DNA from: Bdellovibrionota bacterium
GTDB lineage: Bacteria; Bdellovibrionota_C; UBA2361; CAKMMH01
Length of the DNA stretch: 64,000 nucleotides
Direction: 5' to 3'
Assembly: GCA_034180415.1 (NCBI GenBank)
Contig: JAXFOK010000015.1
Location: forward strand, 2,205 to 66,204
Positions 12,898-31,828 of this stretch are shown one piece after another (within the stretch, counting starts at the first letter, position 1; every line of letters starts with the position of its first letter). The position numbers and the translations under genes were made by a program. Under the pieces are notes generated by a model. The model saw only the letters and a list, made by a program, of their open reading frames with translations. It made no database searches and was not told the origin of the DNA.

Positions 12898-14640
12898 ATG
12901 AGCAACTCTTTATTAGAACCTAACAAAGACATATTATCACGTATTGGTCATTACGTAGTAACAGATATTGGCGCAAAGAGAGAAACTAATCAAGATAATT
13001 TTATCGTCGTTTATGGTGAAAATTTCATATACTATGTCGTTTGTGATGGTATGGGCGGAACTGATGGCGGAGAAATCGCTTCCCAAATGACGGTTTCCTA
13101 TATAGATTCTGAATTAAAAGGTAAAAAAATAAGTGACATTGAAGATGTAAAAAAAGTAGTATATGAAGCTAATGAGAGAGTTTTCGAATATGGCATGGAA
13201 CATAAAGAAGTTCAAGGCCTAGGTACAACAATAACAAGTTTACTTGTGATGCCAAAAAGTTCATGGACTTTAAATGTTGGTGATTCAAGAGTTTATAAAA
13301 TCTTTGGCGATACGATAAGTCAAATTACAGAAGATGATACAGTTTTAAATGAGCTTATAAAATCTGGTGTTATATCTCAGGAAAAAGCAAAAAGTCATCC
13401 CATTTCAAATATGCTTACTAAGACTATCGGACAGGGAAAAAGTCTTGAGATTGAAACAACGAGACTCGGATTTTTAGATTATAGGGAAAGATTTATTTTA
13501 TGTTCAGATGGCTTATATAATATGGTTTCTGATAATGAAATCATGGAAATAATAAGCAATAATGATGTTAAAGAAGGTGTCAGAGGGTTAATAAAAAAGG
13601 CTAATGATAATGGTGGAATAGATAATATTACTGCGATGCTTGTAGGTGTATTTAACCAAAGAATATTATCTGATGAAGAAGAAAATAGCTTAATTGAACA
13701 ATCAAAAGCAAGGGTCGTAAAACCACAAGAGATATCAAATAATATAGATTACAATAAGCTTACTCAAAGGTTTGAGGAATTTAAAAATAGTGATGATGGC
13801 AAATATAAGAAATTATGGAATAAAACAGTTACTGACCACAATAACAATGAAAAAGTTGATGTGTCTAGTAGTGATTTAAGAGTATTAAGCCATTTAATTA
13901 TTTTAGTTGTATTGATAGTTTTAGGTTGTATTTTTGTAATTCCTAATAACAGTGTTAAACTTTCTAGGCAAATTCAAGAAGATAAATTTGAGGATAAAAT
14001 AGGCAATATTAAAGTTACAGAAGATGATTATAAGTTTAGGTTGAATTTTGAAGATAAAAAGTATGACGATAATGATAAGTTTATAGATTATTCTAAAAGA
14101 GAAATTATAGCTTATAATGAGATATTGGATATTGTTAAAAAAAGAGAAAGTTTATCAGAAGAAAAATTGTTAAGGCAAAAAAAAATATTATTAGATAGTA
14201 ATAAGGCTATAGAATCACAAATTAATAAATTGTCAGAAAAGATAAATGATATTAGAGAATATAATAACAAGAATTTATTAGATATTGCACGCGAGATATC
14301 AGAAAATGATGAAAATGTTAAAAAATTATCAGATGATTTTTTAAGTTTTTCATATGATATTCTTAATAATGATTTAAATCAAAATGATTACAATAAAATC
14401 AAAGAAGAAAAATTAAATAGGTTATATAAGCAAGTTGAGAGCTATTTTTATGATAAGATTTCTAAATATGAAATTCAAATAAAGTCTATGCAAGATAAAT
14501 TGCTTAGTAATCAATTTAATCTTTCAATTGTTGATTTAAAAATGCAATATGCAAAATTATTAGTTGATAATGAAGAAGAAAAATTAAAAGATTTTGAGGC
14601 AAAAATTAATACATTAAAGCAAAGAGTAAGCAAATCTTAA
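12898..14640 (+). CDS. PP2C-family Ser/Thr phosphatase with a C-terminal TM segment and a long coiled-coil domain
   Basis: N-terminal PPM motifs (YVVCDGMGGTDGGEIAS, ...CSDGLYNMVSDNE..., DNITAMLV). TM helix LSHLIILVVLIVLGCIFVI. The C-terminal about 230 aa is heptad-like. Confidence 0.8.
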   Translation: MSNSLLEPNKDILSRIGHYVVTDIGAKRETNQDNFIVVYGENFIYYVVCDGMGGTDGGEIASQMTVSYIDSELKGKKISDIEDVKKVVYEANERVFEYGMEHKEVQGLGTTITSLLVMPKSSWTLNVGDSRVYKIFGDTISQITEDDTVLNELIKSGVISQEKAKSHPISNMLTKTIGQGKSLEIETTRLGFLDYRERFILCSDGLYNMVSDNEIMEIISNNDVKEGVRGLIKKANDNGGIDNITAMLVGVFNQRILSDEEENSLIEQSKARVVKPQEISNNIDYNKLTQRFEEFKNSDDGKYKKLWNKTVTDHNNNEKVDVSSSDLRVLSHLIILVVLIVLGCIFVIPNNSVKLSRQIQEDKFEDKIGNIKVTEDDYKFRLNFEDKKYDDNDKFIDYSKREIIAYNEILDIVKKRESLSEEKLLRQKKILLDSNKAIESQINKLSEKINDIREYNNKNLLDIAREISENDENVKKLSDDFLSFSYDILNNDLNQNDYNKIKEEKLNRLYKQVESYFYDKISKYEIQIKSMQDKLLSNQFNLSIVDLKMQYAKLLVDNEEEKLKDFEAKINTLKQRVSKS

Positions 14641-16708: not shown

Positions 16709-17050
16709 TTATTTTGAATTATTACTTGCTGCAGCTAGTGCGTCTAATTCACCGTCTGGAGAAACTATCTGAGTTACCCTTATACCAAATTTATCATTTA
16801 CTACTACTGCTTCACCTTGTGCTAATAATTTATTATTAACTCTAATATCTAAAGGTTCTTCTGGAAGTTTATTTAATTCTATAATTGAACCTTTTCTTAA
16901 TTTTATAAGTTTATCAAGAGTGCACTCAACTCTTCCTAGCTCTACAGATACTATGAGTTCTACATCATAAAAGAATTGAAGTGTACCAACTTTATCTTGA
17001 ATTGAAGCTGATTCAACAATATTCTCTTTTTCTTTTTTTTGCTCTTCCAT
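16709..17050 (-). CDS. FliN/SpoA (SctQ C-terminal) domain protein, orphan
   Basis: ELIVSVELGRVECTLDKLIKLRKGSIIELNKLPEEPLDIRVNNKLLAQGEAVVVNDKFGIRVTQI is a clear SpoA/FliN fold signature. 113 aa. No other flagellar or T3SS switch genes are adjacent. Confidence 0.75.
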   Translation of the reverse strand: MEEQKKEKENIVESASIQDKVGTLQFFYDVELIVSVELGRVECTLDKLIKLRKGSIIELNKLPEEPLDIRVNNKLLAQGEAVVVNDKFGIRVTQIVSPDGELDALAAASNNSK

Positions 17051-17235
17051 AAATTTAACCTAAGTAAAAAACTTTTCTTAGCTTATTTGATGCAAATTAT
17101 ATGAAAAAAGACTAAAAAAAGTCACAATTTTTAATATTTACTTAAAATTTTCTTCGAATTTTACCGATAAATGAAATAATCAAGGTTTATAGGTATTATA
17201 AAAAATTAGTTTTAATTGATAGATTTACGACAAAT

Positions 17236-18501
17236 ATGGAACAAATAGCTGGAAAATATAATATTATTAGGTTGTTAGGTAAAGGAGCTACTGGGGAAGT
17301 GTACCTTGTAGAGCATAATGACCTAAAGTTAGAATATGCACTAAAACTTTTGTCAAAGGAAGTTTCAAATAACGATGTGGTCGTAGAAAGATTTATAAAA
17401 GAGGCAAGATTACTAGAAAAATTTTCCCATAAAAATACTGCAAGATTAAGAGATTTTGGAAAAAATGATGATGGCCGTTATTACATGACTACTGATTTTT
17501 GTAAGGGGATTACATTAAGCGAGCTTGTAAAGAAAAGAGGGGCTATTAATTATAATTTAGCTCTTAAAATCATGATTGATATTTTAGATGTTCTATCTTG
17601 CGCACATAAAGAAGGGGTAGTTCATAGGGATATAAAATCTGAAAATGTGATAGTAAATTTTAATGAAAATTTTGATGATTATGATGAGTTAAAAGTGCTT
17701 GATTTTGGTATAGCCAAAATGAAGCAAGATATTAAATTAAATGATACAAAGACCATAGATGGTTCTGCATTAGGGACTCCTCAATATATGGCTCCAGAAC
17801 AAGCAGCTGGTGAACCTAATCTTGATCATAGGATTGATATTTATTCGGCTGGAATTGTTTTATATGAGCTTCTTGCTGGAAAAGTTCCTTTTTTTGGGGA
17901 AACTATAGTTCAAACGCTTTTAATGCATTTAACTCAGCCGATTCCTCCTTTTGATGAATCATTAAACATTCCAGAAGATGTTTCTAATATTGTTAATAAA
18001 GCATTACAAAAAATCCCTAACAATAGATATCAAACTGCTGAAATGTTTATGCAAGATTGTAAAAAGATTTTAAATTGTGAAAACGTTGGGGAAGTTTCAG
18101 GTGATAATGGTGCGTATGTTATAAATGATGAAAAAAAAGAGAAAACGAAAATTCTATGTATTGATGATAATCAGATGATTTTAAATATAATTAGCCATAT
18201 TTTAACAAAAGAGGGATTTGAAGTATTTACTACAAATGATCCGAGTACACTTCATAGTTATTTATTCCAAGAAAGAATAGATTTGTTGATTTCAGATATA
18301 AATATGCCAAGTATTAACGGTAATGATTTGTGTAAAATGTTAAAACAAACCATGCCAAGCCTTAAAATAGCACTTTTTTCGAATATTCCAGAACAAGACT
18401 TAGAAGCGCTTGCAAAAGATGCGTCAGCAGATGCTTGGATTTCAAAAAACGAAAAGCCAAATGTGTGGCTTGAAGGGATATATAAACTACTAGGAAGATA
18501 A
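17236..18501 (+). CDS. Hanks-type Ser/Thr protein kinase fused to a C-terminal response-regulator receiver (REC) domain
   Basis: Kinase motifs are intact: GKGATGEV, ALKLL (VAIK-like Lys), HRDIKSENV, DFG, APE. The C-terminal about 120 aa is KILCIDDNQMILNIISHIL ... DLLISDINMP ... IALFSN (REC with phospho-acceptor Asp). Confidence 0.85.
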   Translation: MEQIAGKYNIIRLLGKGATGEVYLVEHNDLKLEYALKLLSKEVSNNDVVVERFIKEARLLEKFSHKNTARLRDFGKNDDGRYYMTTDFCKGITLSELVKKRGAINYNLALKIMIDILDVLSCAHKEGVVHRDIKSENVIVNFNENFDDYDELKVLDFGIAKMKQDIKLNDTKTIDGSALGTPQYMAPEQAAGEPNLDHRIDIYSAGIVLYELLAGKVPFFGETIVQTLLMHLTQPIPPFDESLNIPEDVSNIVNKALQKIPNNRYQTAEMFMQDCKKILNCENVGEVSGDNGAYVINDEKKEKTKILCIDDNQMILNIISHILTKEGFEVFTTNDPSTLHSYLFQERIDLLISDINMPSINGNDLCKMLKQTMPSLKIALFSNIPEQDLEALAKDASADAWISKNEKPNVWLEGIYKLLGR

Positions 18502-18692: not shown

Positions 18693-21002
18693 ATGAAAAT
18701 GTTACAAAGAGAAAAATTATTTTTAAGTTGTGTTTTTAGTCTTGCATTTATTGTTTTAACAAATAATGGAAATGCATTGTTAATTGATGATTTTAAGGAT
18801 GTTGATAATAATGGAAATCCTCTTGGACTGCAATCAAGCGTAAATTCAACTAATAGTACAAGTTGGAATGATGTTGGGTTAGCAAATGTAGTGGGCGGTT
18901 GTCGTAAAGTTGTTTTGAGTGGAGATGGAAGTGGAGTTTTTTCAGCTGGAAAGTATTCTCACAACCAAGATGATGCAAAAACTGCAAAGTCAATAATAAC
19001 ATGGGGGGAATGTGAAGACGGTACAGTGATGTCTGAAGTAGATTTCACAAAAGATGGTTCTAAATATTTTGTAGTCAAGTATAATAGTAATGATAGCGTG
19101 GATTATAGAGGAAAAATATATTTAAGATTATGGGATAGCTCTGATCATGAAGCAAATGTTCAGTGTGATCGTTATGAATCCGAGGAAGTGTACAAATGTA
19201 TGTACAAAAAATATACAGATGTTGATGTCGAGCTAGATAAGATTGTAAAGATTCAGTTGATAATGGATGGTTCAAGTGCATCTGGTTGGGATTTCGGTAT
19301 TGAGTCAGTTTTGACTGGAAATAGCCAAAATACAGTTTGTGGTGTTGTTCCTACTGCATCAAATAATTATGGTGCTAAAGATGAATGTGGATTCTGTCCA
19401 AATGATATAATGCCTGATAAATATCAATATGGTCAAGGAAAAGATGAGTGTGATTATTGTCCAAATGATACTTTGCCTGCTAACTATCAATATGGTGATG
19501 GAAAAATTTGTCGTAATTCATGTGATGTAAATCAAAATTGCGGATGGTGTCCAACAATCGATAATCCAGGAAAAGCTCATCAGAGGTATACTTGTAAGCA
19601 ATGTGATGATGGAATGGATAATGACGGAAAGGGTGATATTGACTGTGCTGATCCTCAATGCTTAAAGGGGGTTAATGGAAGCTGTGATCCTAACTATAAT
19701 AGTGAAGCACCACAGTGTAGCAATAAGAAAGATGATGATAATGATGGTAAGGTAGATAAAAACGATCCAGCATGTCTTGATGAAAATGGCAATTATAACC
19801 CAGACCTTGATGATGAATCAGATGAACCTGCTTGTTCTGATAAAGCAGATAATGATGGTGATGGTTTGATTGATTCAAAAGATCCTGGTTGCTATGCGAA
19901 AAATCCAAATACTGGAAAATATGAATATAAGCCAAATAAAAAGAGTGAAGAAGGACCAAATACTGAATGTTCAGATTCAAAAGATAATGATGGTGATGGA
20001 TATATTGATAGTAAAGATCCTGATTGTTGGTATACTGATTCAATTAAGTTAGGTGGAACTAAAGACTATTCAAATGAATCACCTTTTTATGATTGGAATC
20101 CTTGGGATCTTTCAGAAAGTGGTGCAAGAAAGTATCAATGTTCAGATGGAAAGGATAATGATGATGATGGGTTAGTTGATGCGCAAGATCCTGGATGTTT
20201 AGATGATAGTGGTAATTGGAATCCTAAGAAAGATAGCGAAATTAATTCAGATGATGGAAAACCAGAATGTTCAGATGGTAAGGATAATGATAAAGATGGA
20301 TATATAGATTATCCTGATGATCCAGGTTGCACATCAAAGGATGATGATTCTGAAAATGACAACATTACAAAGCCTGAATGTTCTGATGGTATTGATAATG
20401 ATAAAGATGGAAAAATTGATGAAGCTGATACTTCATGTTGGGTTTATGATAATAATGGAAATCCAATTAAGTACGATCCTAATATCGATGATGAATCAGG
20501 ATGTACAACAACTTCTAATGTAAGTAACTTAGATGTTGATAATGAAAGATTAGCTACAATTGGTTTAAATGCTGCTTTATATTTAAAGAGATTCCATGCT
20601 AATTCAAGTAATGAATATAAGAGAACTACTCTTTCTGCAAAACGTGCTGGAACTAAGATTAGTAAGGAAATTAATAAGGTGGTGACAGATTTGAAATCTT
20701 ATTCAGTTTCTTGTAATAGTCAGACAGGTTCTTCATGTAGAAATAACAATAATACAGAGCTTAACAAGTTTTCACAACAAGTTAGTCAATTAAATAAACT
20801 TGTTCGTCGTGCACAAAGAAGAGGTTTGTTCTTTAAGAAGAATTTTGAAAGCAAGGCAATTTCAAAAGCTAAGCAACAAAAAGCAGGTTACAAAAATGCA
20901 AAAGCTACTATGACTAATAACAGAAAGGCTGGAACAAGAATAACTGTTTATAATAATATAAATGCCAAGGTTAGTAGTATTAAGTCATTAGCTATTTGCT
21001 AA
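18693..21002 (+). CDS. Secreted protein (769 aa) with tandem Cys-bounded Asp-rich calcium/metal-binding-type repeats (TSP3/MopE-like) and a basic Lys/Arg-rich C-terminal domain
   Basis: Signal peptide. CPND-containing units (CGFCPNDIMPDKYQYGQG, CDYCPNDTLPANYQYGDG). At least 7 units of C-S-D-x-K-D-N-D-x-D-G-x-(I/V)-D-x-x-D-P-x-C (e.g. CSDKADNDGDGLIDSKDPGC, CSDSKDNDGDGYIDSKDPDC). Basic tail rich in K/R/N/S. Confidence 0.8.
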   Translation: MKMLQREKLFLSCVFSLAFIVLTNNGNALLIDDFKDVDNNGNPLGLQSSVNSTNSTSWNDVGLANVVGGCRKVVLSGDGSGVFSAGKYSHNQDDAKTAKSIITWGECEDGTVMSEVDFTKDGSKYFVVKYNSNDSVDYRGKIYLRLWDSSDHEANVQCDRYESEEVYKCMYKKYTDVDVELDKIVKIQLIMDGSSASGWDFGIESVLTGNSQNTVCGVVPTASNNYGAKDECGFCPNDIMPDKYQYGQGKDECDYCPNDTLPANYQYGDGKICRNSCDVNQNCGWCPTIDNPGKAHQRYTCKQCDDGMDNDGKGDIDCADPQCLKGVNGSCDPNYNSEAPQCSNKKDDDNDGKVDKNDPACLDENGNYNPDLDDESDEPACSDKADNDGDGLIDSKDPGCYAKNPNTGKYEYKPNKKSEEGPNTECSDSKDNDGDGYIDSKDPDCWYTDSIKLGGTKDYSNESPFYDWNPWDLSESGARKYQCSDGKDNDDDGLVDAQDPGCLDDSGNWNPKKDSEINSDDGKPECSDGKDNDKDGYIDYPDDPGCTSKDDDSENDNITKPECSDGIDNDKDGKIDEADTSCWVYDNNGNPIKYDPNIDDESGCTTTSNVSNLDVDNERLATIGLNAALYLKRFHANSSNEYKRTTLSAKRAGTKISKEINKVVTDLKSYSVSCNSQTGSSCRNNNNTELNKFSQQVSQLNKLVRRAQRRGLFFKKNFESKAISKAKQQKAGYKNAKATMTNNRKAGTRITVYNNINAKVSSIKSLAIC

Positions 21003-21003
21003 T

Positions 21004-21388
21004 AAAATTGACGATGCATCCAAGATTGCGTCGTTATTCGAGAGAGATGCCGTCCTCGCTGTACTTAATAGTACAGCTGTGGGTGCATCCTCTCGAATGC
21101 CTAGCACTCTTGGCGCCTCGTCAATTTTATATATTAAGACGATGCATGTGATGATGCTACGTTCATTTTGAGGGATAAACGGTCCTTGCTGTACTTAATA
21201 GTACAGCTGTGGGAGCATCCTCCCGAATGCCTAGCACTCTTGGCGCCTCGTCAATTTTATATATTAAGACGATGCATGTGATGATGCTACGTTCATTTTG
21301 AGGGATAAACGGTCCTTGCTGTACTAATCGTACAGCTGTGGGAGCATCCTCTCGAATGCCTAGCACTCTTGGTGCCTCGTCAATTTTA
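21004..21388. repeat. Tandem array of three family-A palindromic elements (units about 121 nt)
   Basis: Copy 1 is 21004–21128. Copies 2 and 3 (21129–21249, 21250–21388) form a 121-nt direct repeat (atattaagacgatgcatgtgatgatgc...). Each has a central hairpin gctgtacttaatagtacagc and a 3' module gaatgcctagcactcttggcgcctcgtcaatttt. Termini are inverted complements. The ORF 21163..21408 is a repeat artefact. Confidence 0.8.
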
Positions 21389-21514
21389 TAAAATGGACCT
21401 TTTAACAACCCCTAAAAGGTAAAAGTTTTAATGGGTTGGTGCGTAATTAAAGTTTGCTGTGAAAAATTTCGATATTGAGTATAGGTTGGATTATATTTTT
21501 TTAAGTTTTAAGCT

Positions 21515-22762
21515 ATGAAATTATTAATTATTGATGTTTCAACAGAAGCTCAAGCAAAGTGTGCTAAAAAAATAGAGCCTTTTAATAGAAGTGATGTCGA
21601 AATGCTTGATTTAAAAATCAAGCTTGCAAACGAGCAAACTTATAAAGATATTCTAGAAGGAGCAGATGTTGCAATACTTGGTGCAGGGTTAGGTGAGTCT
21701 GCAATAGTGGTCGCAAGAGAGATTGCAAGCGTGTGCCCTTGGATGAATATTATAATGTTTGTTAAAGAGTCATTATACGGTGGAAGCTCTTTTAGAAGCG
21801 CACATTCAGTGGGCGTAAGAAAAGTTTTTTCTGATAACGCAAGTCCTCTTGATTTCTTGCAAGAACTTGTAGCAATTCACAGTGAATTTAGAAAAGAAGG
21901 TCGAGCCAGGGAAGGTATAGTTGTCGCGGTGAATCATGCCAAGGGAGGCGTCGGAGCAACTTCAATTTGCGCAGCTCTTGCAGAGGTTTGTGGAGTTTAT
22001 AATAAAAGGACACTTCTTTGGGATTTAGATGTCGAGACAAGAGATTTAAGTCGCTCTCTTACTGCAAGTGGAACAGAAGCCAAAGTAGTTTCATCGTGGG
22101 TTAATGGTTCAAGAGAAATTTCAAGAGAATCTTTAAAAGATGCACTTTTACCTATAAGTAATGAAGTTTCAATATTAATTCCACCAGATTGTATGGCTGA
22201 GTCTATGGATTTAGTGTGTCATACAGATAGTATAGCTCTTTGTAGTAGAATTTTAGAGCTTTCAAGAGTGCTTTTTGACGTAATTATTATTGATACTGGT
22301 GGAAGAATGGGACCTGCTACTGGAGCAGTAGTAAGAAATAGTGATAAAACTTTAATTGTTATTGATGATACGATTTTGGGACTAACAGCTGTCGATCTTT
22401 ATTTAAATTTTATTAAGAGTTTAGTTGGAACTCCAGATAGAATTAATTTTTTAATAAATCAATATACTGGAAATCTTCTTACAAAAAATCAGATTGAAGC
22501 TGAGTTAGAACCTATTCATAGGTTAGGACATGAGGTTTGGAGCTTAGATCCAGTGTATATGGACCCAAAAGCTAGCCTTTGGTCAGCAAGTGGTAAGACG
22601 CTTTATAGTTTAGGTAATAGAAATACAAGAGTTGCTCTAGAAAAGATGGCTGTAATTCTAGGACTTACTATTCAACATGGCGTAGTAAAGAGAGAAAACC
22701 AAGCAAATAATAACCAAAAAGAAAAAGGACATAAGTTTTTGAATTTTTTTAATAAAAAATAA
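21515..22762 (+). CDS. tadZ: TadZ/CpaE-type pilus-assembly ATPase (ParA/MinD-like, N-terminal degenerate receiver domain)
   Basis: N-terminal MKLLIIDVSTEAQAK REC-like fold. Deviant Walker A AVNHAKGGVGATSICAALA. 415 aa. Located at the head of the flp operon. Confidence 0.8.
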   Translation: MKLLIIDVSTEAQAKCAKKIEPFNRSDVEMLDLKIKLANEQTYKDILEGADVAILGAGLGESAIVVAREIASVCPWMNIIMFVKESLYGGSSFRSAHSVGVRKVFSDNASPLDFLQELVAIHSEFRKEGRAREGIVVAVNHAKGGVGATSICAALAEVCGVYNKRTLLWDLDVETRDLSRSLTASGTEAKVVSSWVNGSREISRESLKDALLPISNEVSILIPPDCMAESMDLVCHTDSIALCSRILELSRVLFDVIIIDTGGRMGPATGAVVRNSDKTLIVIDDTILGLTAVDLYLNFIKSLVGTPDRINFLINQYTGNLLTKNQIEAELEPIHRLGHEVWSLDPVYMDPKASLWSASGKTLYSLGNRNTRVALEKMAVILGLTIQHGVVKRENQANNNQKEKGHKFLNFFNKK

Positions 22763-22935
22763 TGTTTGTTATTTTTGTTAATATTTGAATCTTTTTTTAA
22801 AAAAAAGAATCTTAATACTTAAATATATGAGGTTTGTATTTGCTGATTTTTTAGTTTTAGTTTAAGTTGTAGTTATAAATAGCTATATTTGTAAACTAAA
22901 AATTTAAATAATATATATATTAAGGAGAAAGTAAA

Positions 22936-23109
22936 ATGTTAAGAATTTTTAGTAAGAAAGAAAAAGGTGCTTCACTCGTTGAGTACGCGTTACTAGTTGC
23001 TTTAATTGCATTAGGATCAATGGCTGCTATGAGATTACTATCAAATAATATTTCAGGTGCATTCTCTCAATCAGGTAGTATATTACAAGATGTAAGTAAA
23101 GCAGGTTAA
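22936..23109 (+). CDS. flp: Flp-family pilin precursor (57 aa), absent from the supplied ORF track
   Basis: MLRIFSKKEKGASLVEYALLVALIALGSMAAMRLLSNNISGAFSQSGSILQDVSKAG carries the Flp signature (G/ASLVEYALLVALIAL: prepilin-peptidase site G|A, conserved E and Y). Strong RBS aaggagaaagtaaaATG. Sits directly upstream of cpaB/tadA/tadB/tadC. Confidence 0.8.
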   Translation: MLRIFSKKEKGASLVEYALLVALIALGSMAAMRLLSNNISGAFSQSGSILQDVSKAG

Positions 23110-23127
23110 TTTATTAAGTATTTTATT

Positions 23128-24039
23128 ATGAAGCCACTTAGTTCTCAACCAGATAGTAATTCTAAGCTAATTTTTTTAGTTGCAATTGTTGTAATGCTTT
23201 TGCTAGGTGGCTTTCTTTTAATTTTTTTCGGATTTAGTAATAAATCTAATAATACCGGACAAAATTTTGATAATCCACAAAGTGAATTGAATGATAATAT
23301 AAATACTAGAGCAGAAAATAATGCAAATGTTGAAAGAACAGTTCAGGTTTTAGTTACAATAAGAGATATTAAAAATGGCGAAAAATTAGATCCTACAATG
23401 TTTAGGAAAGAAACAAGGCCAGAAAATTTTGTTAAACCTGATGATTATAGAGATTTTTCACAGATAGATGGTTTTTTTGCAAAATCAGATATTGGATTTA
23501 GAGAAACTATAGACCCAAATAAAGTATCAAGAAAAAAACCAGTAAATACTATAACGGCTAATATTCCTGAAGGTTACAGAGCTGTTACAATTAATGTTGA
23601 TGTGACAAGTAGTGTAGAAGGTTGGGCAAGAGCAGGAGCGTTTGTTGATGTTGTATGGAATTCAGTGATAAATGGAAAACCAGCTGCTACTGTAATTATT
23701 CAAAATGCAAAAATTTTATCAGCAGAAAGGCAAATTGAGGCTAATCCACAAGAGGGACAGGCTCCTGTTCCTAGTACTGTAACACTTCTTGTGCTTGCGG
23801 ATGATGCAACAAAAATTCATCTTGCAGAAACCACTGGTAAGTTAAGTTTACAGTTAAGAGGGGACGATGCTGAAAAAGGATTTGGGGCAAGAACTTCCCT
23901 TACAATAGATGATTTACTTGATAAGAATAATGGTAAAAAAGATAATAAAAAGTATGATGCTATTGTAAAAATTAAAGGTAAAAATGGTAAAATGGAAAGG
24001 TGGGGATTAAAGGATGGAAGTCTTGTTCTAATTGAGTAA
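23128..24039 (+). CDS. cpaB: CpaB/RcpC-family Flp pilus assembly protein
   Basis: N-terminal TM anchor, then a SAF-like region (VQVLVTIRDIKNGEKLDPTMFRKETRPENFVKPD) and a beta-rich C-terminus, at the canonical position between flp and tadA. Confidence 0.65.
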   Translation: MKPLSSQPDSNSKLIFLVAIVVMLLLGGFLLIFFGFSNKSNNTGQNFDNPQSELNDNINTRAENNANVERTVQVLVTIRDIKNGEKLDPTMFRKETRPENFVKPDDYRDFSQIDGFFAKSDIGFRETIDPNKVSRKKPVNTITANIPEGYRAVTINVDVTSSVEGWARAGAFVDVVWNSVINGKPAATVIIQNAKILSAERQIEANPQEGQAPVPSTVTLLVLADDATKIHLAETTGKLSLQLRGDDAEKGFGARTSLTIDDLLDKNNGKKDNKKYDAIVKIKGKNGKMERWGLKDGSLVLIE

Positions 24040-24057
24040 TTTTAAAAGAAGTTATAA

Positions 24058-25515
24058 ATGGCAAGAAATGAGACTAATGATGATTTAACAAGTTTGTTTT
24101 CTACAAGAAATAAGATGATAAATGAATCATCGCAAGGGGAGAATAATTCGTTAATGCCATCTGTATCTGGTGGAACTTCTTCTCGAGGTATTGCAAAAAC
24201 TAATAAAAATGATTCAAAAGATTATTCTCAAGGAAATGATAGTTTTAAAAAGGAACTTTCAGAGACAGGTAATAGGGTATTAAAAGAAGCAAGAAGTGAG
24301 CTAGGGGAACTTTTAAACAAACAAAAAGAATCTAACAAAGCTATTGATGAGTCAACGATTATTAAAGCTGTAGAAAAGGTTATTGAAAAAAATGAAGTTT
24401 CACTTCCTGACTTAGAAAAGGCTACTATTATTATTCATCTTCAAAAGGATTTGCTTGGTTGGGGAGTTTTACAGCCTCTTATAGATAATCCAGAAGTTAC
24501 AGATATTCACGTTTATGATTATGCTACAGTCGTGCTTCAACGTGGTAAAGTTAGTGAAAGAACTCAGTATCGATGGCCATCCAAACAAGTTTATATAGCA
24601 TTTATTGATAGGCTTCTTTTAAGACTTGGAAAATCACTATCTACTCAGCAACACACGGTTGATGCTGCGCTTCCAAATGGAATAAGAATTTGTGCAATTC
24701 ACGAGAGTGTTTGTGGTTCAAGAGGCCCACTTTTAAGTATTCGTGTACCAAGAGTTAGTAAAGTATCACTTGAAAGTATCGTATCATACCAAATGGCACC
24801 ACCATTAATTGTTAGGTATTTAGCAGCACTTGTAAAATGTGGTATTTGTACATTTATGATAGCAGGAGAAACTGGTACTGGTAAAACGACTATTATGAAA
24901 TGTCTTGCAACTCAATTTGGTGAAACTGAGTCAATCGTAGCTGTTGAAGATACTCCAGAACTTAATTTACAACATGAGTATTTTAGATCCCTTGTATCTC
25001 GTCCACCAAACACCGAGGGAAAAGGTGAAGTTACACTTCAAGAGCATATAAAAACTACTCTTCGTATGACACCAAACAGGGTACTACTTGGTGAAATGAG
25101 AACTCCATTTGCTGCAGAAGCTTTCTTAGAAGGTGTCCAAACAGGTCACGTTGGAATGAGTACAATTCACGCTCGTAATGCTAGAGAAACTCTTACAAGA
25201 CTTGAAGGACTTTTAGGACGTGCTCAACAGTCAGTTTCTACTGAGATTTTAAGGCAGCAAATCGCGCTTGCTGTAGATGTTGTTGTTTGGCTTTTTAGAG
25301 AAAAAGAAACGGGAAAACCAAGAGTAGGGGAAATAATTGAAGTTGGACACTGTGTTGAAGGTGTAATTCAAACGCGTCCTATGTTTTCAATTTTAAAAAC
25401 AGGAAAGGATCCTCTTTGGAGAGTCGACTCTTGGGCAAGTTTCTTTGATGAAGAGCTAGCAGAATACGGAATATTTCTAGGAGATGCGCCTCCTGAGATT
25501 AGTTTAAAAGACTAG
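24058..25515 (+). CDS. tadA: TadA/CpaF pilus-assembly ATPase (T2SS/T4SS secretion ATPase superfamily)
   Basis: Walker A IAGETGTGKTTIMKCL, Asp box, Walker B and His box (GHVGMSTIHA). The N-terminal about 140-aa extension is unusually long. Locally higher GC is typical of a conserved ATPase. Confidence 0.9.
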   Translation: MARNETNDDLTSLFSTRNKMINESSQGENNSLMPSVSGGTSSRGIAKTNKNDSKDYSQGNDSFKKELSETGNRVLKEARSELGELLNKQKESNKAIDESTIIKAVEKVIEKNEVSLPDLEKATIIIHLQKDLLGWGVLQPLIDNPEVTDIHVYDYATVVLQRGKVSERTQYRWPSKQVYIAFIDRLLLRLGKSLSTQQHTVDAALPNGIRICAIHESVCGSRGPLLSIRVPRVSKVSLESIVSYQMAPPLIVRYLAALVKCGICTFMIAGETGTGKTTIMKCLATQFGETESIVAVEDTPELNLQHEYFRSLVSRPPNTEGKGEVTLQEHIKTTLRMTPNRVLLGEMRTPFAAEAFLEGVQTGHVGMSTIHARNARETLTRLEGLLGRAQQSVSTEILRQQIALAVDVVVWLFREKETGKPRVGEIIEVGHCVEGVIQTRPMFSILKTGKDPLWRVDSWASFFDEELAEYGIFLGDAPPEISLKD

Positions 25516-25555
25516 CATAATATATATGTTTTTTAAAAAAAGGTTTTAAGAAAAA

Positions 25556-26485
25556 GTGTCTATTGAGGTTATACTAGGAATAATATTAATTCTTTTGTCA
25601 ATAATTGTCGCTTGTGTGCTATTATTGTCTAATAATAATTCTAGTCATTCAAATTTTAAAAGTTTAAGTTCTCAAAAGAATAACAATGATAATAATTTAG
25701 AAGATATTGATTTTGTAAAAGTAGAAAGAACTAGCAATGGAAAATATACTTTAAGACAAAAAATGATATATGCAAATTGGAAATTTCCTCCAATCCTATT
25801 TAATATGTTTAGGTTTTCATTAGCAATTTTATGCTTTATGATAGCAAAGACCTATTTTAAGATTTTTTTATCTACTATTATTGCCTTTTTAGCTTTTAAC
25901 TTTGCAAATGGTTTTTTAAACAGGGCAATAAAGAAAAGATTCGATGCGTTTGATAAAGACTATCCAACATTTTTACAAACAATAGTAAGTTTATTAAAAT
26001 CTGGTATGAATGTACTTACTGCTATAGATTCAGCATCTGAGGGGCTAGAAGATACGTCACTTTTAAAAAGTGAAGTTAAGGTCATGATGGAAAGATTAAG
26101 AGCAGGAGTCGGTGAAGAAAAAGCTATTGGAAATTTTGGAGCAACAATTGATCATCCAGAAATTGAATTATTTATCCAAACTATAATTTTAGGAAAAAGC
26201 CTAGGTGGTTCTTTATCTATGACCCTTGATAGGCTTGCAGAACAAGTAAGAAAAAGACAATATTTTAGAGGCTCAGCAGTTGCTTCTATAGCACAGCAAA
26301 AAGGATCTTTATGGGTTATTTTATATTTATTATCAGGTTTAATTATTACAATTGGATGTAAAGCTCCAGATTTATTTGCTGTTGGATTGCATAGCAATGG
26401 TGGTAGAATGGTCTTGGAAATAGGAATATGTATTATATTGCTTGGAATATTTTGGATTAAGAAAGTTATAAATATTAAGGTATAA
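25556..26485 (+). CDS. tadB: TadB (GspF-like inner-membrane platform protein)
   Basis: T2SSF domain (PTFLQTIVSLLKSGMNVLTAIDSASEGL ... IQTIILGKSLGGSLSMTLDRLAEQVRKR) with flanking TM helices. GTG start. Confidence 0.75.
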   Translation: MSIEVILGIILILLSIIVACVLLLSNNNSSHSNFKSLSSQKNNNDNNLEDIDFVKVERTSNGKYTLRQKMIYANWKFPPILFNMFRFSLAILCFMIAKTYFKIFLSTIIAFLAFNFANGFLNRAIKKRFDAFDKDYPTFLQTIVSLLKSGMNVLTAIDSASEGLEDTSLLKSEVKVMMERLRAGVGEEKAIGNFGATIDHPEIELFIQTIILGKSLGGSLSMTLDRLAEQVRKRQYFRGSAVASIAQQKGSLWVILYLLSGLIITIGCKAPDLFAVGLHSNGGRMVLEIGICIILLGIFWIKKVINIKV

Positions 26486-27346
26486 ATGAATTTATTAATT
26501 GGTTTTATCATAATTTTTGCGATTATAACTTTTGTGTTATTTGTAGTAATTGTTTATTCGAATAAGAAAAATCAAGAAAAATCTACTCCTAAATATTTAT
26601 CAAATTCTTCTAAAAAAAATGTAGCAAAAAATAATACTAAATCAAAGAATGGTAAAGATGAAAGTTTAGAATCACTTTTTTATAGAGCTGGAATCTTTGA
26701 TGAAAAAGACAAGGCGGCTTTTAATAGGAAAAAAGTGCTTTATCCATTAATTTTTGGAATTATAGGAGCCATATTAGGGATTTATTATGGAGGATATTCA
26801 CTTTTTCTAATGCCTACCTTAGGTGCATATCTTGGTTTAAAATTTCCAGGAAGAATACTAAATAAAAGAATAAAAGAAAGAGATGAAGATATCTTATACT
26901 ATTTACCACTTGTAATAGAGCAATTAGTTGTAGGAGTAAGTAGCGCACTTGATATAGGCCCATGTATAGCTTATGTCGTCGATATGGCAGAAAAAAGAGG
27001 AACACATAATCCTGTCACAATTCTTTTAAAACAAGTACAAATTTTAGTTAGATTTGGTGCATCATTAGATGACGCACTTGTAGATGTTGGTAAGCAATCA
27101 GGTCATAATGAACTTAAAAATAGCTTTTTACAACTTTCACAGGTTACAAAGCATGGTGGTGAAATTACGAAACAATTACAAGATCTTGGAACAACAGTTA
27201 CAAGACAACGTGAGATTATAATTGATGAACGTATAAAAAGATTGGAATTAAAAGCAACAGGCCCTGTATTTTTAGTATTTGCCGGCCATATGGCTATATT
27301 ATTAGCATTCTTATTTATGGGGCTAGCAAAATCTCTTAGTAATTAA
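26486..27346 (+). CDS. tadC: TadC (second GspF-like platform protein)
   Basis: T2SSF-like region (ILYYLPLVIEQLVVGVSSALDIGPCIAYVVDMAEK ... QVQILVRFGASLDDALVDVG) plus TM helices. The start abuts the tadB stop. Confidence 0.75.
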   Translation: MNLLIGFIIIFAIITFVLFVVIVYSNKKNQEKSTPKYLSNSSKKNVAKNNTKSKNGKDESLESLFYRAGIFDEKDKAAFNRKKVLYPLIFGIIGAILGIYYGGYSLFLMPTLGAYLGLKFPGRILNKRIKERDEDILYYLPLVIEQLVVGVSSALDIGPCIAYVVDMAEKRGTHNPVTILLKQVQILVRFGASLDDALVDVGKQSGHNELKNSFLQLSQVTKHGGEITKQLQDLGTTVTRQREIIIDERIKRLELKATGPVFLVFAGHMAILLAFLFMGLAKSLSN

Positions 27347-27411: not shown

Positions 27412-29496
27412 ATGAAGAAATTTCAGATTCAAGGGCAAGATTTTGTATTAGCACTTTTTGTGCTATCAATTACCGCAATGCTTGTAATACCACTTCCTAC
27501 AAGTATGCTTGATTTCTTGCTTGTTATTAACATTTCATTTTCATTGCTTCTTTTACTTGCTGGATTATATATGCCAAATGCGTTGGCATTAATTTCTTTT
27601 CCTTCACTTCTTTTATTAACAACACTTTTTAGATTAGGTTTAAATGTAGCATCTACAAGATTAATTTTGAGCCAAGGAGATGCAGGCCATGTTATTGAGG
27701 CTTTCGGTACATTCTTAATTAGAGGTGAAGTAACAATTGGTGTTATTATATTTTTAATAATAACAATTGTAAATTTTATAGTTATCGCAAAAGGTGCAAA
27801 TCGTGTATCAGAGATTACAGCAAGATTTTCACTAGAATCGCTTCCTGGAAAACAAATGGCAATAGACTCTGATCTTCGTTCAGGAGTCATTGATGTTAAT
27901 CAAGCTAGAAAAAGAAGAGATGACTTAAGAAAAGAATCACAGCTTTATGCTGCTATGGACGGAGCGATGAAATTTATTCAAGGTGATGCAATTGCGGGCT
28001 TCTTTATAACACTTACAAATATTATAGGTGGTTTGTATATAAGTTTAAGAGGTGGAATGAGCCTTGGTGAAGCTGTAGAAACTTATACAACGTTAACTGT
28101 AGGTGATGGATTAGTTAGTCAAATTCCTGCGCTTTTAATATCAATATGCGCTGGTATCGTTGTTACAAGAGTTAGCTCAGGTGAAAATTCAACACTTGGT
28201 AAAGAACTTCAAGGACAACTTCTTAGTAGTCCAAGTATTATAATTTTTACAGGTTCTGTACTATTTTTCTTTGCTATACTCCCAGGACTTCCTGCATTAC
28301 AATTTATAAGTGTTGGTACGTTCTTAATAAGTGTTGGTTTATATTTAAATTACAAAAAAAGAGAAAGTACAAGAAATGTGGAGTTTCTTCCAATATCAGT
28401 TCTAAAGGCAAATCGAGAATTGTTAGAAAGCGATAATAGTAAAATACAAAATGTATTTCAAATATTTATAGATAAAGAGTTTGGAAGTTACGTAAATGAT
28501 AACTCACTTTCTATTTTACAGAAATGTAATGAGTATAAGGAAAATTTTAAAAAAATGACAGGTTTCGAGTTTCCTCAATTTAAATTTGTCATAAAAAATG
28601 AAATATTAAAAAATGCATTTAAAGTTTATAAATTGAACACGCTTGTCGTAGAATCTAGTTTTAAAGATGACATGATATATTTAAATATTAATAAATCTGA
28701 GCTTCCAATTTTGGGATTAAAAGATTTTGTTGAGGATTATCATCCTATATATGGAAATAAACTTTATGGCGTTATTAAAAATACATATACAAGTTTGTTA
28801 TGTGAAGAAACGGATTTAATGTATTATGATAAAATCGATTGGATTTTATTAAATATTGCAAGTTTTTGCATTGATAATCCAATAGAGTTTTTTAGCATTT
28901 CGGATATTACAAAAGTGTTGAAAGATATAGAAAAAGATTATCCAGAGATAATAAAAGATTTGTTTTCTATACCCAAAGTTAATAGTGCAAAAATTTTCAA
29001 AGTATATGCTGAGCTCATGAGACAAGAGATATTTTATATATCACATAAAGAAATTTTAGAAGGTATTATTTCATATTTTAATGGTTATAATGTATCTGAC
29101 GAATCTGATTTTGATGTATTTAATATTGTAAGTTATATAAGGCAAAGTAAAAAATTACATGTTACGTATAATTCAATTTATAAAGATAAAAGAATAAAAC
29201 TTTGTAGTATTTCAGATGAACTTCAAGAAACTTTTGAAGAAATGATACCACAAGTTTATGAGGGAAGTGTTAATTTAGATTTAAAAGATTTTGGGGTAAT
29301 TAAGAATAATATTGTGGCACTTCAAAGACCATATTTAGAAAAAGGTGTAACAAGCTTTTCGATAGTTAGTTCTAAAGAGTTAATACCTGTTATATATAGT
29401 GTACTTAAGATTTTTCAATTAAAGATTAATATAGTAGAATTTGATGAGTTAACATCTGATTTAAAAATAGAACATATTGGAATTTGGAGAAAATGA
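27412..29496 (+). CDS. FlhA/SctV-family (FHIPEP) type-III export-gate protein paralog, encoded at the 3' end of the tad operon
   Basis: The N-terminal 330 aa align almost residue-by-residue with the FlhA membrane domain (LLLTTLFRLGLNVASTRLIL, ITARFSLESLPGKQMAIDSDL, MDGAMKFIQGDAIAG, TVGDGLVSQIPALLISICAGIVVTRV). The C-terminal cytoplasmic domain is divergent but retains an FlhA-like stretch (KENFKKMTGFEFPQFKFVIKN, cf. RKKFAQDMGFLPPVVHIRDN). Confidence 0.85.
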   Translation: MKKFQIQGQDFVLALFVLSITAMLVIPLPTSMLDFLLVINISFSLLLLLAGLYMPNALALISFPSLLLLTTLFRLGLNVASTRLILSQGDAGHVIEAFGTFLIRGEVTIGVIIFLIITIVNFIVIAKGANRVSEITARFSLESLPGKQMAIDSDLRSGVIDVNQARKRRDDLRKESQLYAAMDGAMKFIQGDAIAGFFITLTNIIGGLYISLRGGMSLGEAVETYTTLTVGDGLVSQIPALLISICAGIVVTRVSSGENSTLGKELQGQLLSSPSIIIFTGSVLFFFAILPGLPALQFISVGTFLISVGLYLNYKKRESTRNVEFLPISVLKANRELLESDNSKIQNVFQIFIDKEFGSYVNDNSLSILQKCNEYKENFKKMTGFEFPQFKFVIKNEILKNAFKVYKLNTLVVESSFKDDMIYLNINKSELPILGLKDFVEDYHPIYGNKLYGVIKNTYTSLLCEETDLMYYDKIDWILLNIASFCIDNPIEFFSISDITKVLKDIEKDYPEIIKDLFSIPKVNSAKIFKVYAELMRQEIFYISHKEILEGIISYFNGYNVSDESDFDVFNIVSYIRQSKKLHVTYNSIYKDKRIKLCSISDELQETFEEMIPQVYEGSVNLDLKDFGVIKNNIVALQRPYLEKGVTSFSIVSSKELIPVIYSVLKIFQLKINIVEFDELTSDLKIEHIGIWRK

Positions 29497-29497
29497 T

Positions 29498-31828
29498 ATG
29501 GCTGATAATAATAATAGTTTAATAATTATTAATTCTATAAATGAGCTTTATAAAATAGAGTCTAGTATAGCTATTACAAATAGTTCTGAAAGTTTTAAAG
29601 CTGTCGAGATTAGTACAGGAAGAAGTGTGATTTTATCTGTATTAAAAAGAAAATTTAACGTTTATTTAGATCCTAAAGAAATCTCACAATTTTTAGATAG
29701 ACTTAATAAGATTCAAACTTTTGGAAGTTCGCTTTCTTCATTAATTAGTTTTGGTGTTGATAAGGATGGAGTAGGGTATTCGGTATGTGCTATTTCCTCG
29801 GTTAACTCGGTCTTATCTGGAACTATCAACTATGGTGAGGCAACTAGACGTTTAGAAGCTGTTTTGCAGATTCTTATGAAAATGCATAAAGCAGATATAG
29901 CTTGTGGTGATATATGTAATGATTCATTTTTTATAAGTAGAGAAGGGAATATCGGATTATTAGCTATAAATGGGACTTACCCTAGAAAAAGTGATGAAAA
30001 CTTAACAAACAGTCATTATGCACTTCCTAATATTCATGAACCAATATCAATATTAAGTGATATCTATAGATTAGGAATACTTAGCTATAAATTATTTTTA
30101 AATGATTATGATGCATATCCTTTTGATGAAAATAATAATTATATTCAATTAATTTCTTTAAATTGTGATATACCAAGTTATATCGATTTAGCAATAAAAA
30201 CATGTTTAAGTGTAAATCCAGAGGGAAGATTTAGTAATGCTGAAGAGCTTTTTAATTATATTAAATCAGAGCGAGAAAAAGATTCATCAAACGATAACTC
30301 CTTAACTTCTATAAATCCTACAAATGATGAGTTTTCAAAAGTTAAGGTGCTTAATGAAATAGCACTTAGAGAAGAAGTAAATAGTAAAAATAAAAAGATG
30401 AAGGCTACATTAGGCATTGTGGGAGTAGTCTTAATTGTATTTTTTGTGATTATCTTTTTAAGCCAAAATCGAGGAAGAGGTAATAATGGTGTATTAAATA
30501 TGAGAAGAAACACCCAAACAAGTGAAAGCCAGTTAAGAGAGCAAGAAGAAAAATTAAAAAGAATATACGATAGTGAAGATCCGCTAATGTATGTTGCAAT
30601 GGTTAATATGGCAAATAAAGCCTTAAATCCTCAACAAAGAAAATTAGTAGAAAAATATATTGTAAAAAGATTTAAAAATTATCAATATGATAATCTTGTA
30701 GTTATATTAGAAGATTTTTTATCAAGTATAGTTGGTAATGAGATTCCAGAGTTTTATGAAAAATTATTACTTGCTCTTGATAAAAAATATCCGATTGAGA
30801 AAAGGGGAGTTATTTTTAAAGAGCTTTCTAAAAACAATAAAAGTTTAATTGTCGATTTAGCAATAGCTTTATCGTTAGATGATAATAATGAAAAAAGTTA
30901 TAGAGATGTTTTTGTAAGTTTTCTTGATGATGAGTTTAAAAAAGATATTCAGAGGAGATCTTTTGATGCACTATTAATTGCAGAATACTTCTCATGGCAA
31001 AAATATGAGAGCTTACTAAAAGAAAAACTTACAAAATTATCTGATGAAGATTTAGTATGGATTGTTCCAATTTTTGTTAAAAGAAATGATAAATACCTTG
31101 AAAATGTTATCGATTTAATTACAAAAAGACATTTACTTGATGATGTACAGTCAAGCTTTTTATCGCTTATTAATGAATTAAATCCTCCAAAAGAAATTAA
31201 GGATATCTTATTAAAAGCTAGTACATCTCAGATTACACAAAATGACATTCAAGTAGTTTCAAATTGGATTAATATTAATAAAGAAAAAATATTATATGTG
31301 ATGATATTAGCGTTAAAAACAGATATTTCGCTTAAAAGAGAAATATTTGATATATTTTCAGTAACTAGAGTTCAAGATGAGTTAATTAATAAATATGTCA
31401 AATTTGTTAAAGAAAATTTATGGAATAATAGAGGTGAGCTTACTACTTTGATACCATATTTATTAAAATCAAAAGATTATTCTGAGGATAAACTATTAAA
31501 TGCTATTAAATATAGTATAAAGAAATTAAGTAGTTCGGATAAAAGTAAAATATTAACAGAACTTGTTGAAATCGCTGATGATAAAATTAAAACAATTATT
31601 TTTGAAAATTTCTATGAAGATTTAGGAGTAGGGGTCTTAGTAAATTATCTTTCTTATGATGATAAAAATATTAAGAAACTTGCACTAAAAGGATTAAAGG
31701 AATCAGGTATTGATGACATCATTATCTCAAATCTAATTATTGAAAAGTATGATGAAGAAGATGATGACGAAATAAGAAATATGTATAAATCAAATTTCTG
31801 GTTTATAAGAAAAAGAGAATTAGAATAA
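29498..31828 (+). CDS. Membrane pseudokinase: N-terminal degenerate protein-kinase-like domain, TM helix, C-terminal helical-repeat (HEAT/ARM-like) domain
   Basis: The kinase fold is recognisable (YKIESSIAI..., HKADIACGDICNDSFFI in place of HRDLKxxN, ING in place of DFG, ...SDIYRLGILSYKLF) but G-loop, HRD and DFG are degenerate. TM segment ATLGIVGVVLIVFFVIIFL. The start sits 1 nt after the FHIPEP stop (tgatATGg). The track start 29477 is in-frame upstream, but the coupled ATG at 29498 is preferred. Confidence 0.5.
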   Translation: MADNNNSLIIINSINELYKIESSIAITNSSESFKAVEISTGRSVILSVLKRKFNVYLDPKEISQFLDRLNKIQTFGSSLSSLISFGVDKDGVGYSVCAISSVNSVLSGTINYGEATRRLEAVLQILMKMHKADIACGDICNDSFFISREGNIGLLAINGTYPRKSDENLTNSHYALPNIHEPISILSDIYRLGILSYKLFLNDYDAYPFDENNNYIQLISLNCDIPSYIDLAIKTCLSVNPEGRFSNAEELFNYIKSEREKDSSNDNSLTSINPTNDEFSKVKVLNEIALREEVNSKNKKMKATLGIVGVVLIVFFVIIFLSQNRGRGNNGVLNMRRNTQTSESQLREQEEKLKRIYDSEDPLMYVAMVNMANKALNPQQRKLVEKYIVKRFKNYQYDNLVVILEDFLSSIVGNEIPEFYEKLLLALDKKYPIEKRGVIFKELSKNNKSLIVDLAIALSLDDNNEKSYRDVFVSFLDDEFKKDIQRRSFDALLIAEYFSWQKYESLLKEKLTKLSDEDLVWIVPIFVKRNDKYLENVIDLITKRHLLDDVQSSFLSLINELNPPKEIKDILLKASTSQITQNDIQVVSNWININKEKILYVMILALKTDISLKREIFDIFSVTRVQDELINKYVKFVKENLWNNRGELTTLIPYLLKSKDYSEDKLLNAIKYSIKKLSSSDKSKILTELVEIADDKIKTIIFENFYEDLGVGVLVNYLSYDDKNIKKLALKGLKESGIDDIIISNLIIEKYDEEDDDEIRNMYKSNFWFIRKRELE

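Follow-up and report, generated by a model that had tools for sequence, protein, structure and literature searches.

Why a protein of the FlhA/SctV export-gate family should be encoded in a pilus operon is the question raised by a gene at positions 27412..29496 (+ strand) of a 64-kb stretch of DNA, hereafter the window, from an uncultured Bdellovibrionota bacterium with ~30% G+C. The gene starts with ATG, encodes a FHIPEP (SctV/FlhA-family) protein of 694 amino acids, and begins 65 nt after the stop codon of a tadC gene. On the usual view, FHIPEP proteins occur only in flagella and injectisomes. Judged by its sequence, the protein belongs to a third, monophyletic lineage of this family, apart from flagellar FlhA and injectisome SctV. 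The linkage to Tad genes is an invariant trait of this separate clade, not an accident of one genome. We consider the gene product likely to be functional and SctV-like, a component dedicated to a specialised pilus machine of the Tad (Flp, type IVc) type.

The FHIPEP protein and its predicted fold

Searched against Pfam, the open reading frame (ORF) gave a practically full-length match to FHIPEP (PF00771; E 3.3e-156), with residues 20-684 corresponding to positions 1-656 of the 657 in the model. It was also aligned end to end with the NCBIfam models of SctV (TIGR01399, 521.3 bits) and FlhA (TIGR01398, 471.9 bits), in both cases under the equivalog cut-off (692.25 and 772.1 bits, respectively). 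SctV was the best-scoring NCBIfam model, slightly ahead of FlhA, and the closest relatives by sequence in the PDB were YscV, SsaV and FlhA. A first-pass annotation, made from the letters alone, had described the gene as a full-length FlhA/SctV paralog whose N-terminal membrane domain has nearly the motif content of FlhA. Full-length membership of the family is borne out by all these matches, whereas by score the protein is slightly nearer to SctV than to FlhA.

An AlphaFold2 model built from an alignment of 117 clade sequences had a mean pLDDT (predicted local distance difference test) of 82.6, with the cytoplasmic domain mostly at 83-91. The protein consists of a polytopic membrane domain (residues ~1-320), a variable linker of low pLDDT (~322-343) and a cytoplasmic part with four subdomains (~345-694). 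Residues ~345-694 used as a Foldseek query retrieved the cytoplasmic domains of FlhA, EscV, InvA, YscV and MxiA as well as CdsV, with target TM-scores of 0.70-0.83 at only 10-16% identity; the predicted fold of the C-terminal half is thus that of the FlhA/SctV cytoplasmic domain with its four subdomains. With the full-length profile match and the fold matches, the protein has the two halves expected of an export gate and the likeness goes beyond generic transporter helices, which removes one of the two grounds on which the first-pass annotation might have been set aside.

In FlhA, the charged cytoplasmic-loop residues R147, D158, K203 and D208 are implicated in proton-coupled export. According to the alignment, their counterparts R138, D152, K187 and D192 are conserved in the window protein; among the 117 clade sequences R138 and D192 never vary, while D152 is kept in at least 90%. 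Approximately 70 columns of this alignment are invariant, and at the position of FlhA D456-P457 the clade has an invariant His-Pro.

A Tad operon with a fixed FHIPEP gene

All genes from cpaE to the FHIPEP gene and its downstream neighbour are read from the same strand, in the order cpaE-flp-cpaB-tadA-tadB-tadC-FHIPEP-pseudokinase/HEAT. The FHIPEP gene appears to be co-operonic with the Tad genes, as the first-pass annotation had proposed. The first gene of the block encodes a CpaE/TadZ-like ATPase of the ParA/MinD family (21515..22762, +; Pfam AAA_31 and CbiA, conserved synteny). It is followed by a Flp-type pilin precursor of 57 aa (..KGASLVEYALLVALIALGS..; 22936..23109, +), recognised from the ORF list and its sequence; orthologous small ORFs of related loci match Pfam Flp_Fap. 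Next come a CpaB/RcpC periplasmic Flp-pilus assembly protein (23128..24039, +; Pfam RcpC and SAF, TIGR03177 pilus_cpaB with 127 bits against a cut-off of 71), a TadA/CpaF-type secretion ATPase (24058..25515, +; Pfam T2SSE E 3e-33, TIGR03819 217 bits), and the T2SSF-family platform proteins TadB (25556..26485, +; Pfam T2SSF E 1.2e-12, conserved synteny) and TadC (26486..27346, +; Pfam T2SSF). The co-directional block at 21515-27346 therefore holds the core inner-membrane Tad set in full (6/6: TadA, TadB, TadC, TadZ/CpaE, Flp and CpaB/RcpC), in the usual order of classical Tad/Flp systems such as Caulobacter Cpa and Aggregatibacter Tad. It differs from them in the additional FHIPEP and pseudokinase/HEAT genes, in the linked genes for a PP2C-family phosphatase and a Ser/Thr kinase (STK), and in what is missing: Pfam searches of all window ORFs of at least 100 aa revealed no secretin (RcpA/CpaC), prepilin peptidase (TadV/CpaA) or TadE/F/G minor pilins. 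These were likewise not seen in the annotated loci of the clade and may be encoded elsewhere in the genome. Identities of TadA to published segments of KilF, Bd0111 and alphaproteobacterial CpaF were 22-28% in all cases and did not discriminate between them. A promoter and terminator scan of this AT-rich DNA gave counts at the level of shuffled sequence and was uninformative on operon structure.

As the first-pass annotation had stated, the gene stands outside any flagellar or injectisome cluster. Pfam searches with all substantial ORFs of the window found no FlhB/SctU, FliPQR/SctRST, FliM, SctJ or SctN, and phmmer with E. coli FlhB and with FliM, FliO, FliP, FliQ, FliR and FlhB from a flagellar operon (locus L155; L### are labels of fetched loci) added nothing further. 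The only other type-III-related gene in the 64 kb, already noticed in the first pass, encodes a FliN-type SpoA-domain protein of 113 aa (16709..17050, -), while the remaining substantial ORFs belong to housekeeping genes according to Pfam.

This arrangement recurs. The nearest public relative, a metagenome-assembled genome (MAG; GCA_050952645.1), has the same gene order, with 76% identity in FHIPEP and 88% in RuvB. Contigs were scanned with a full-length alignment, giving at least 3 clade loci, and with a 51-residue clade-specific segment, giving at least 16; an alignment of the C-terminal part alone was dropped as a query, its 19-25% identity offering too little conservation. In 29 of the 29 clade loci examined TadC is encoded directly upstream of FHIPEP, with gaps of 2-228 nt and down to ~30% FHIPEP identity. 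The commonest layout is PP2C, FHA protein, STK, CpaE, Flp, CpaB, TadA, TadB, TadC, FHIPEP, pseudokinase/HEAT and an AhpC/TSA-like protein. By contrast, in most of the reference FlhA/SctV loci that these scans returned, FlhB/SctU and FliN/SctQ are encoded no more than 10 kb away. No description of a FHIPEP gene embedded in a Tad operon was found in the literature. As a side observation, the AhpC/TSA-like gene after the pseudokinase is missing in the window's lineage (the window, L001 and P0006).

Placing the protein in a FlhA/SctV phylogeny, as had been suggested in the first pass, gave a distinct clade. A neighbour-joining (NJ) tree of 107 FHIPEP proteins (663 columns) recovered the Tad-linked clade with a bootstrap of 100/100, flagellar FlhA with 91 and non-flagellar SctV with 88. 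A larger one (180 sequences, 665 columns) again gave 100/100 for the Tad-linked clade and divided it into subclade A (98) and subclade B (100). With E. coli FlhA as the root, the Tad-linked clade is sister to the SctV group. Of the 79 clade sequences, 71 fall into subclade A, among them the window protein and L159, the earliest-branching member examined. In the 107-taxon set, the window protein is 39-76% identical to subclade A, 30% to L019 of subclade B, 27-31% to FlhA and 27-33% to SctV. The clade has signatures of its own, namely KF(V/I)QGD instead of KFV(K/R)GD and S(I/V)CAG instead of S(T/I)(A/T)AG, and subclade A has FLIRGE instead of FVVGGN. When 1.84 billion representative proteins were searched exhaustively, ~45 clusters at 50% identity had the clade motifs among 2140 FHIPEP clusters (E up to 1e-30). 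The Tad-linked clade is consequently a diverse but small minority of the FHIPEP family.

These results bear on one alternative explanation, that the gene is the flhA of a flagellated organism, its only FHIPEP gene, which a rearrangement has brought next to Tad genes. This would fit the FliN-type gene 10 kb away, which scores above its equivalog cut-off (TIGR02480 fliN, 93.7 bits; cut-off 84), as well as the flagellar genes carried by relatives and the label 'flagellar biosynthesis protein FlhA' given to some clade members by the NCBI pipeline. It is contradicted by the fully supported separation from flagellar FlhA and the sister position to SctV, by a TIGR01398 score of 472 bits against a cut-off of 772 and below that of the SctV model, by the loss of FlhA-specific linker and chaperone-dimple residues (see below), by the invariant Tad linkage over a wide range of identity, and by the type III partners of subclade B, which are the injectisome-type SctJ and SctD and not FliF and FliG. 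A merely displaced flhA, the other ground on which the first-pass proposal might have fallen, is on this evidence very improbable. The FliN-type protein itself, whose homologs with 60-62% identity are encoded in a canonical fliLMNOPQR-flhBA-flhFG operon (L155) and near flgD and flgE (L154), is probably the flagellar FliN of the organism; since it is most likely flagellar, a separate canonical flhA is likely to exist elsewhere in the genome.

A second explanation, that the gene is a decaying relic of an ancestral hybrid cluster, either functionless or with the membrane domain alone at work, can be weighed against the conservation of the two domains. The mean identity of the membrane domain is 62% within subclade A, no lower than in flagellar FlhA (57%) or SctV (58%); at this similar level, the cytoplasmic domain of subclade A reaches only 30%, as compared with 43% in FlhA and 35% in SctV. 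The difference is greatest for the window's lineage (the window, L001 and P0006), which shares 63% of the membrane domain and only 20% of the cytoplasmic domain with the remainder of subclade A, and this, together with the disappearance of other type III genes from the operon, is what decay would lead one to expect. Within the same lineage, however, the cytoplasmic domains are 57-71% identical. Every locus, across the ~45 clusters, has an unbroken ORF of full length; the fold is predicted to be complete, and with confidence; and a translationally coupled partner keeps its place in the gene order. A relic is therefore hardly credible. Given the intact ORFs, the conserved membrane domain and loop charges, and the ~70 invariant columns, the protein looks functional, being neither a flagellar FlhA nor a degenerate remnant. 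The divergence of the cytoplasmic domain in the window's lineage suggests a lineage-specific switch of binding partners, and we read the protein as one that has retained its fold and a predicted ring assembly, with binding partners specific to the system.

Hybrid clusters and the proposed machine

In three subclade B loci (L019, L157 and L158), the operon runs on into type III genes, which are co-directional and separated by short gaps. In L158, a full PP2C-FHA-STK-CpaE-Flp-CpaB-TadA-TadB-TadC block precedes the FHIPEP gene, which is followed by genes for the pseudokinase/HEAT protein, two proteins with FHA/YscD-cytoplasmic domains (SctD-like), SctJ (YscJ/FliF family), a 78-aa protein, SctO/FliJ, SctQ (FliMN_C) and SctR (FliP), with the start of SctS at the contig end. 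L019 follows the same order until its contig ends within SctR. In L157, FHIPEP is followed by two FHA proteins, SctJ, a 94-aa protein, SctR, SctS, a 193-aa membrane protein in the position of SctT, and a SctU of only 228 aa (10825-11511), which matches the membrane part (model positions 6-218 of 335), while the substrate-switch domain of the cytoplasmic side, which cleaves itself, is missing. Corresponding components of the three loci are orthologs. SctJ and the SctD-like proteins are of the injectisome and not of the flagellar type, in agreement with the tree. Neither a SctN ATPase nor a secretin (SctC), needle or translocon gene was seen in these hybrid clusters. A conserved protein of 76-94 aa always comes after SctJ (L158 17988-18224; L019 10080-10310; L157 8860-9144); it has no family match and no obvious features of a needle protein.

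Even in subclade B the SctV-like FHIPEP gene stays beside tadC and not beside the gate genes. The flanks of subclade A (24 loci, ~352 kb including the whole window, and also L159) contained no gate genes; there, the operon gives way to the AhpC/TSA-like gene and housekeeping genes. On the simplest reading of the sequences, the common ancestor already had a hybrid Tad and type III cluster, from which subclade A later lost the gate genes or relocated them. Since there are two sister subclades and the root is uncertain, subclade B may instead have gained the type III gate genes.

The immediate neighbour of the FHIPEP gene in the window encodes a pseudokinase/HEAT membrane protein (29498..31828, +; 776-783 aa) recognised from ortholog alignment, the orthologs matching Pfam Pkinase and HEAT_2. 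Its ATG at 29498 lies 1 nt past the FHIPEP stop codon; if the alternative start, TTG at 29477, is used, the two genes overlap. The N-terminal kinase-like domain is followed by one transmembrane helix (~aa 322-345 of 783) and a C-terminal all-helical HEAT-like domain of ~430 aa; the AlphaFold2 model, from an alignment with five close homologs, was of low confidence (pLDDT 59.6). The kinase-like domain is considered a pseudokinase, because in the orthologs the HRD aspartate is variable (D/N/T), DFG is absent, and the VAIK lysine is replaced by arginine in the more distant members. The gene stands directly 3' of FHIPEP in 16 clade loci and is demonstrably absent only in L157, most of the other loci ending at this point. 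Two genes for Ser/Thr phosphorylation lie further upstream in the window. The PP2C-family phosphatase (12898..14640, +; Pfam PP2C_2, synteny) is the counterpart of the one heading the PP2C-FHA-STK-Tad block elsewhere in the clade, and the Ser/Thr kinase with a C-terminal receiver domain (17236..18501, +; Pfam Pkinase E 9e-47, Response_reg E 7e-19) is that of the STK found ahead of cpaE in most clade loci (in L004, L005, L007, L008, L087, L088, L090, L095, L103 and L158).

How these parts might work together can be sketched as follows. Starting from a hybrid ancestor whose gate genes were lost or moved in the window's subclade, the FHIPEP protein would assemble in the inner membrane into an oligomeric ring of the SctV type, lying next to the TadB/TadC platform or encircling it, and would be tied to this platform functionally and probably physically. 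The ring would keep the charged loop residues implicated in the proton coupling of FlhA, and its fast-evolving cytoplasmic portion could be a docking platform for the pseudokinase, TadA/TadZ or cargo. The pseudokinase/HEAT protein would be the partner of FHIPEP, and the linked module of STK, PP2C and FHA proteins could control assembly or firing, as in other contact-triggered machines. Such a system would be the single-operon counterpart of the Kil and T3SS* tandem of Myxococcus (see below), its role probably being contact-dependent interaction with prey or host cells. In its specific form, this proposal makes the SctV ring a structural part of the Tad pilus motor which, in the window's lineage, stands alone without SctRSTU and acts as a proton-coupled, energising or docking ring on TadB/TadC; we regard this form as quite possible and advance it tentatively.

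The rival that comes closest, a split hybrid, overlaps with the reading of a dedicated Tad-linked subunit and differs solely in whether a dedicated gate still exists. According to it, the protein serves as SctV in a needle-less type-III-like export apparatus that is complete but has its other genes (SctRSTU, SctJ, SctD, SctQ and others) elsewhere in the genome; type III export across the inner membrane would be ordinary, with the Tad pilus helping delivery. SctV rings normally need SctRST for assembly, subclade B encodes such a gate in the same operon, the membrane domain is still highly conserved, and the scattered flagellar genes of related lineages (L154) make dispersed gene sets plausible. 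Conversely, the scanned subclade A loci contain no gate gene, AhpC/TSA-like and housekeeping genes follow their operon, and the FHIPEP gene adjoins tadC rather than gate genes in subclade B as well. On balance, a split hybrid seems rather unlikely.

Several points weigh against a dedicated subunit of a Tad machine. We know of no SctV/FlhA ring that assembles or works without a SctRST/FliPQR core, so that a gate-independent role would be without precedent; the gene search covered the 64-kb window, and SctRSTU/FliPQR may be encoded elsewhere in the genome. A complete pilus is not inferable from this locus alone, since secretin, prepilin peptidase and minor pilins are not in the window. The first-pass annotation had credited the cytoplasmic domain with FlhA-like linker features and proposed to look for the substrate-docking residues; in the alignment, the linker residues E351/W354/D356, which make ring contacts in FlhA, are not kept, nor are D456/F459/T490 of the FlhA chaperone dimple, of which the F459 and T490 positions vary, and only the fold is preserved. 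These losses and the fast evolution of the cytoplasmic domain could reflect relaxed constraint. The trees are distance-based NJ trees whose root is not established, and the functional statements made here are drawn from sequence and gene order.

Comparison with known systems

Among established export-gate proteins, SctV (YscV/LcrD, InvA, MxiA, EscV, CdsV) is the nearest, sharing with the Tad-linked protein the full-length Pfam family, the best NCBIfam model, the predicted fold and the charged loop; in subclade B, FHIPEP is also encoded together with SctJ, SctD-like, SctO, SctQ, SctR, SctS and SctU genes. It departs from SctV in scoring under the equivalog cut-off, in forming its own clade with signature motifs, and in always following tadC. 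Moreover, the window's subclade has no adjacent SctRSTU, SctJ or SctN, and none of the loci showed genes for a needle, a secretin or a translocon. FlhA has the same family, architecture and fold, and equivalents of its R147, D158, K203 and D208 are kept; however, the window protein is only 27-31% identical to it overall and ~13% in the cytoplasmic domain, and is not encoded beside flhB/fliPQR.

Judging by analogy, the closest known counterpart of the whole system is found in Myxococcus xanthus, where a Tad-like machine, Kil, and T3SS*, a type III secretion system lacking the needle, carry out contact-dependent killing of prey (Seef 2021, PMC8460266; Nat Commun 2025, PMC12075869; also Thiery 2022, as cited there), which sets a precedent for functional coupling of the two kinds of system. 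The two are encoded in separate gene clusters, co-localise at prey contacts and have been proposed to form one complex (PMC8460266, PMC12075869); according to a 2025 review, their co-occurrence is seemingly restricted to Cystobacterineae (PMC12428579). Common to both cases are a Tad-like machine, type III parts without needle, secretin and translocon, abundant FHA-domain proteins and a predatory lineage, and the proposed single complex fits the gene fusion seen in the Tad-FHIPEP clade. They differ in that T3SS* has a full sorting platform including SctN, whereas in the present case the Tad operon itself contains the type III part, which consists of the SctV-like FHIPEP alone in the window and of a fuller set, combined with Tad in one operon, in subclade B. 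In the trees, SctV proteins of Myxococcota (Archangium; L018, L023 and L029) fall into the ordinary SctV group outside the Tad-linked clade, which on this sequence evidence is a different lineage and not orthologous to them.

Bdellovibrio bacteriovorus itself has a Kil-like locus, Bd0108-Bd0119, which, unlike the Tad block of the window, includes a secretin. Among the entries listed in its annotation, there was no FHIPEP at Bd0108-Bd0119 and one FlhA (Bd3321); this species probably lacks a Tad-FHIPEP system. Chlamydia possesses orphan flagellar homologs of FlhA, FliI and FliF, which are encoded apart from the injectisome genes and presumably work with another secretion machine; they are a precedent for a FHIPEP-family gene retained away from a full flagellar cluster. 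In contrast to the Tad-linked FHIPEP, these are of flagellar type, stand in genomes with a full injectisome and have no Tad link. The Chlamydiales sequences sampled here (L014 and L038) were ordinary SctV genes beside SctU.

A third FHIPEP lineage fixed in Tad operons widens the known uses of an export-gate protein and is a clear case of one secretion machine co-opting part of another. If the proposal holds, a class of chimeric envelope machines for which no description was found would occur widely among uncultured Bdellovibrionota and related bacteria, as a natural genetic fusion of both systems that Myxococcus uses for prey killing. The single-operon Tad and type III clusters lend independent genomic support to a physical coupling and provide simpler gene sets to dissect, and the reduced form in the window poses the question of whether an SctV ring can function without SctRSTU. 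Since Bdellovibrionota are studied as 'living antibiotics', a conserved envelope machine in this group for which no published description was found is also of practical interest.

Neighbouring genes and minor observations

The FliN-type gene and the divergently oriented kinase/receiver gene form a conserved pair (window 16709-18501; L001 1-832; L153 8575-10384). Relative to the Tad block, the pair has opposite orientations in the window and in L001, and in L153 it is present with no Tad block in the 10 kb downstream. The FliN protein was considered as a part of the Tad-FHIPEP system and judged unlikely to be one, as it is flagellar-type, absent from clade loci other than the window and L001, and without similarity to SctQ from subclade B.

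The gene immediately preceding the Tad block encodes a 769-aa protein (18693-21002, +) with a signal-peptide-like N-terminus and at least 7 'acidic double-disulfide' repeats (NF033662; CSDxxDNDxDGxxDxxDPxC). The gene keeps this position in L001 and L153, and its product may act as a partner of the system that is secreted or sits on the surface. The 513-nt gap between this gene and cpaE contains a 130-nt tandem repeat at 21052-21390 (2.6 copies, 96% matches). Folded as RNA, one unit reaches -50.2 kcal/mol (z = -5.7 versus shuffles), and the first two copies each show a hairpin followed by a T-run. The repeat had no Rfam match and no further copy in the window or in any fetched locus, and an Rfam scan of the whole window likewise gave no matches. 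Possible roles are those of a regulatory RNA or of a terminator/attenuator, present in repeated form, ahead of the Tad operon.

Outside the Tad-linked clade, four loci of 'Deltaproteobacteria' or unclassified MAGs (L009, L026, L099 and L125) carry SctV-group genes with a PP2C gene 1-5 kb upstream and no FlhB/SctU inside the flank; L009 and L026 cluster near the SctV of Myxococcota in the tree. They may represent another type III variant linked to Ser/Thr phosphorylation. Two further window genes are unrelated to the FHIPEP gene: one for a 406-aa protein at 10035-11255 (+) that matches nothing but the arginyl-tRNA synthetase N-terminal domain, and one for a 395-aa Fic-domain protein at 51276-52463 (+).

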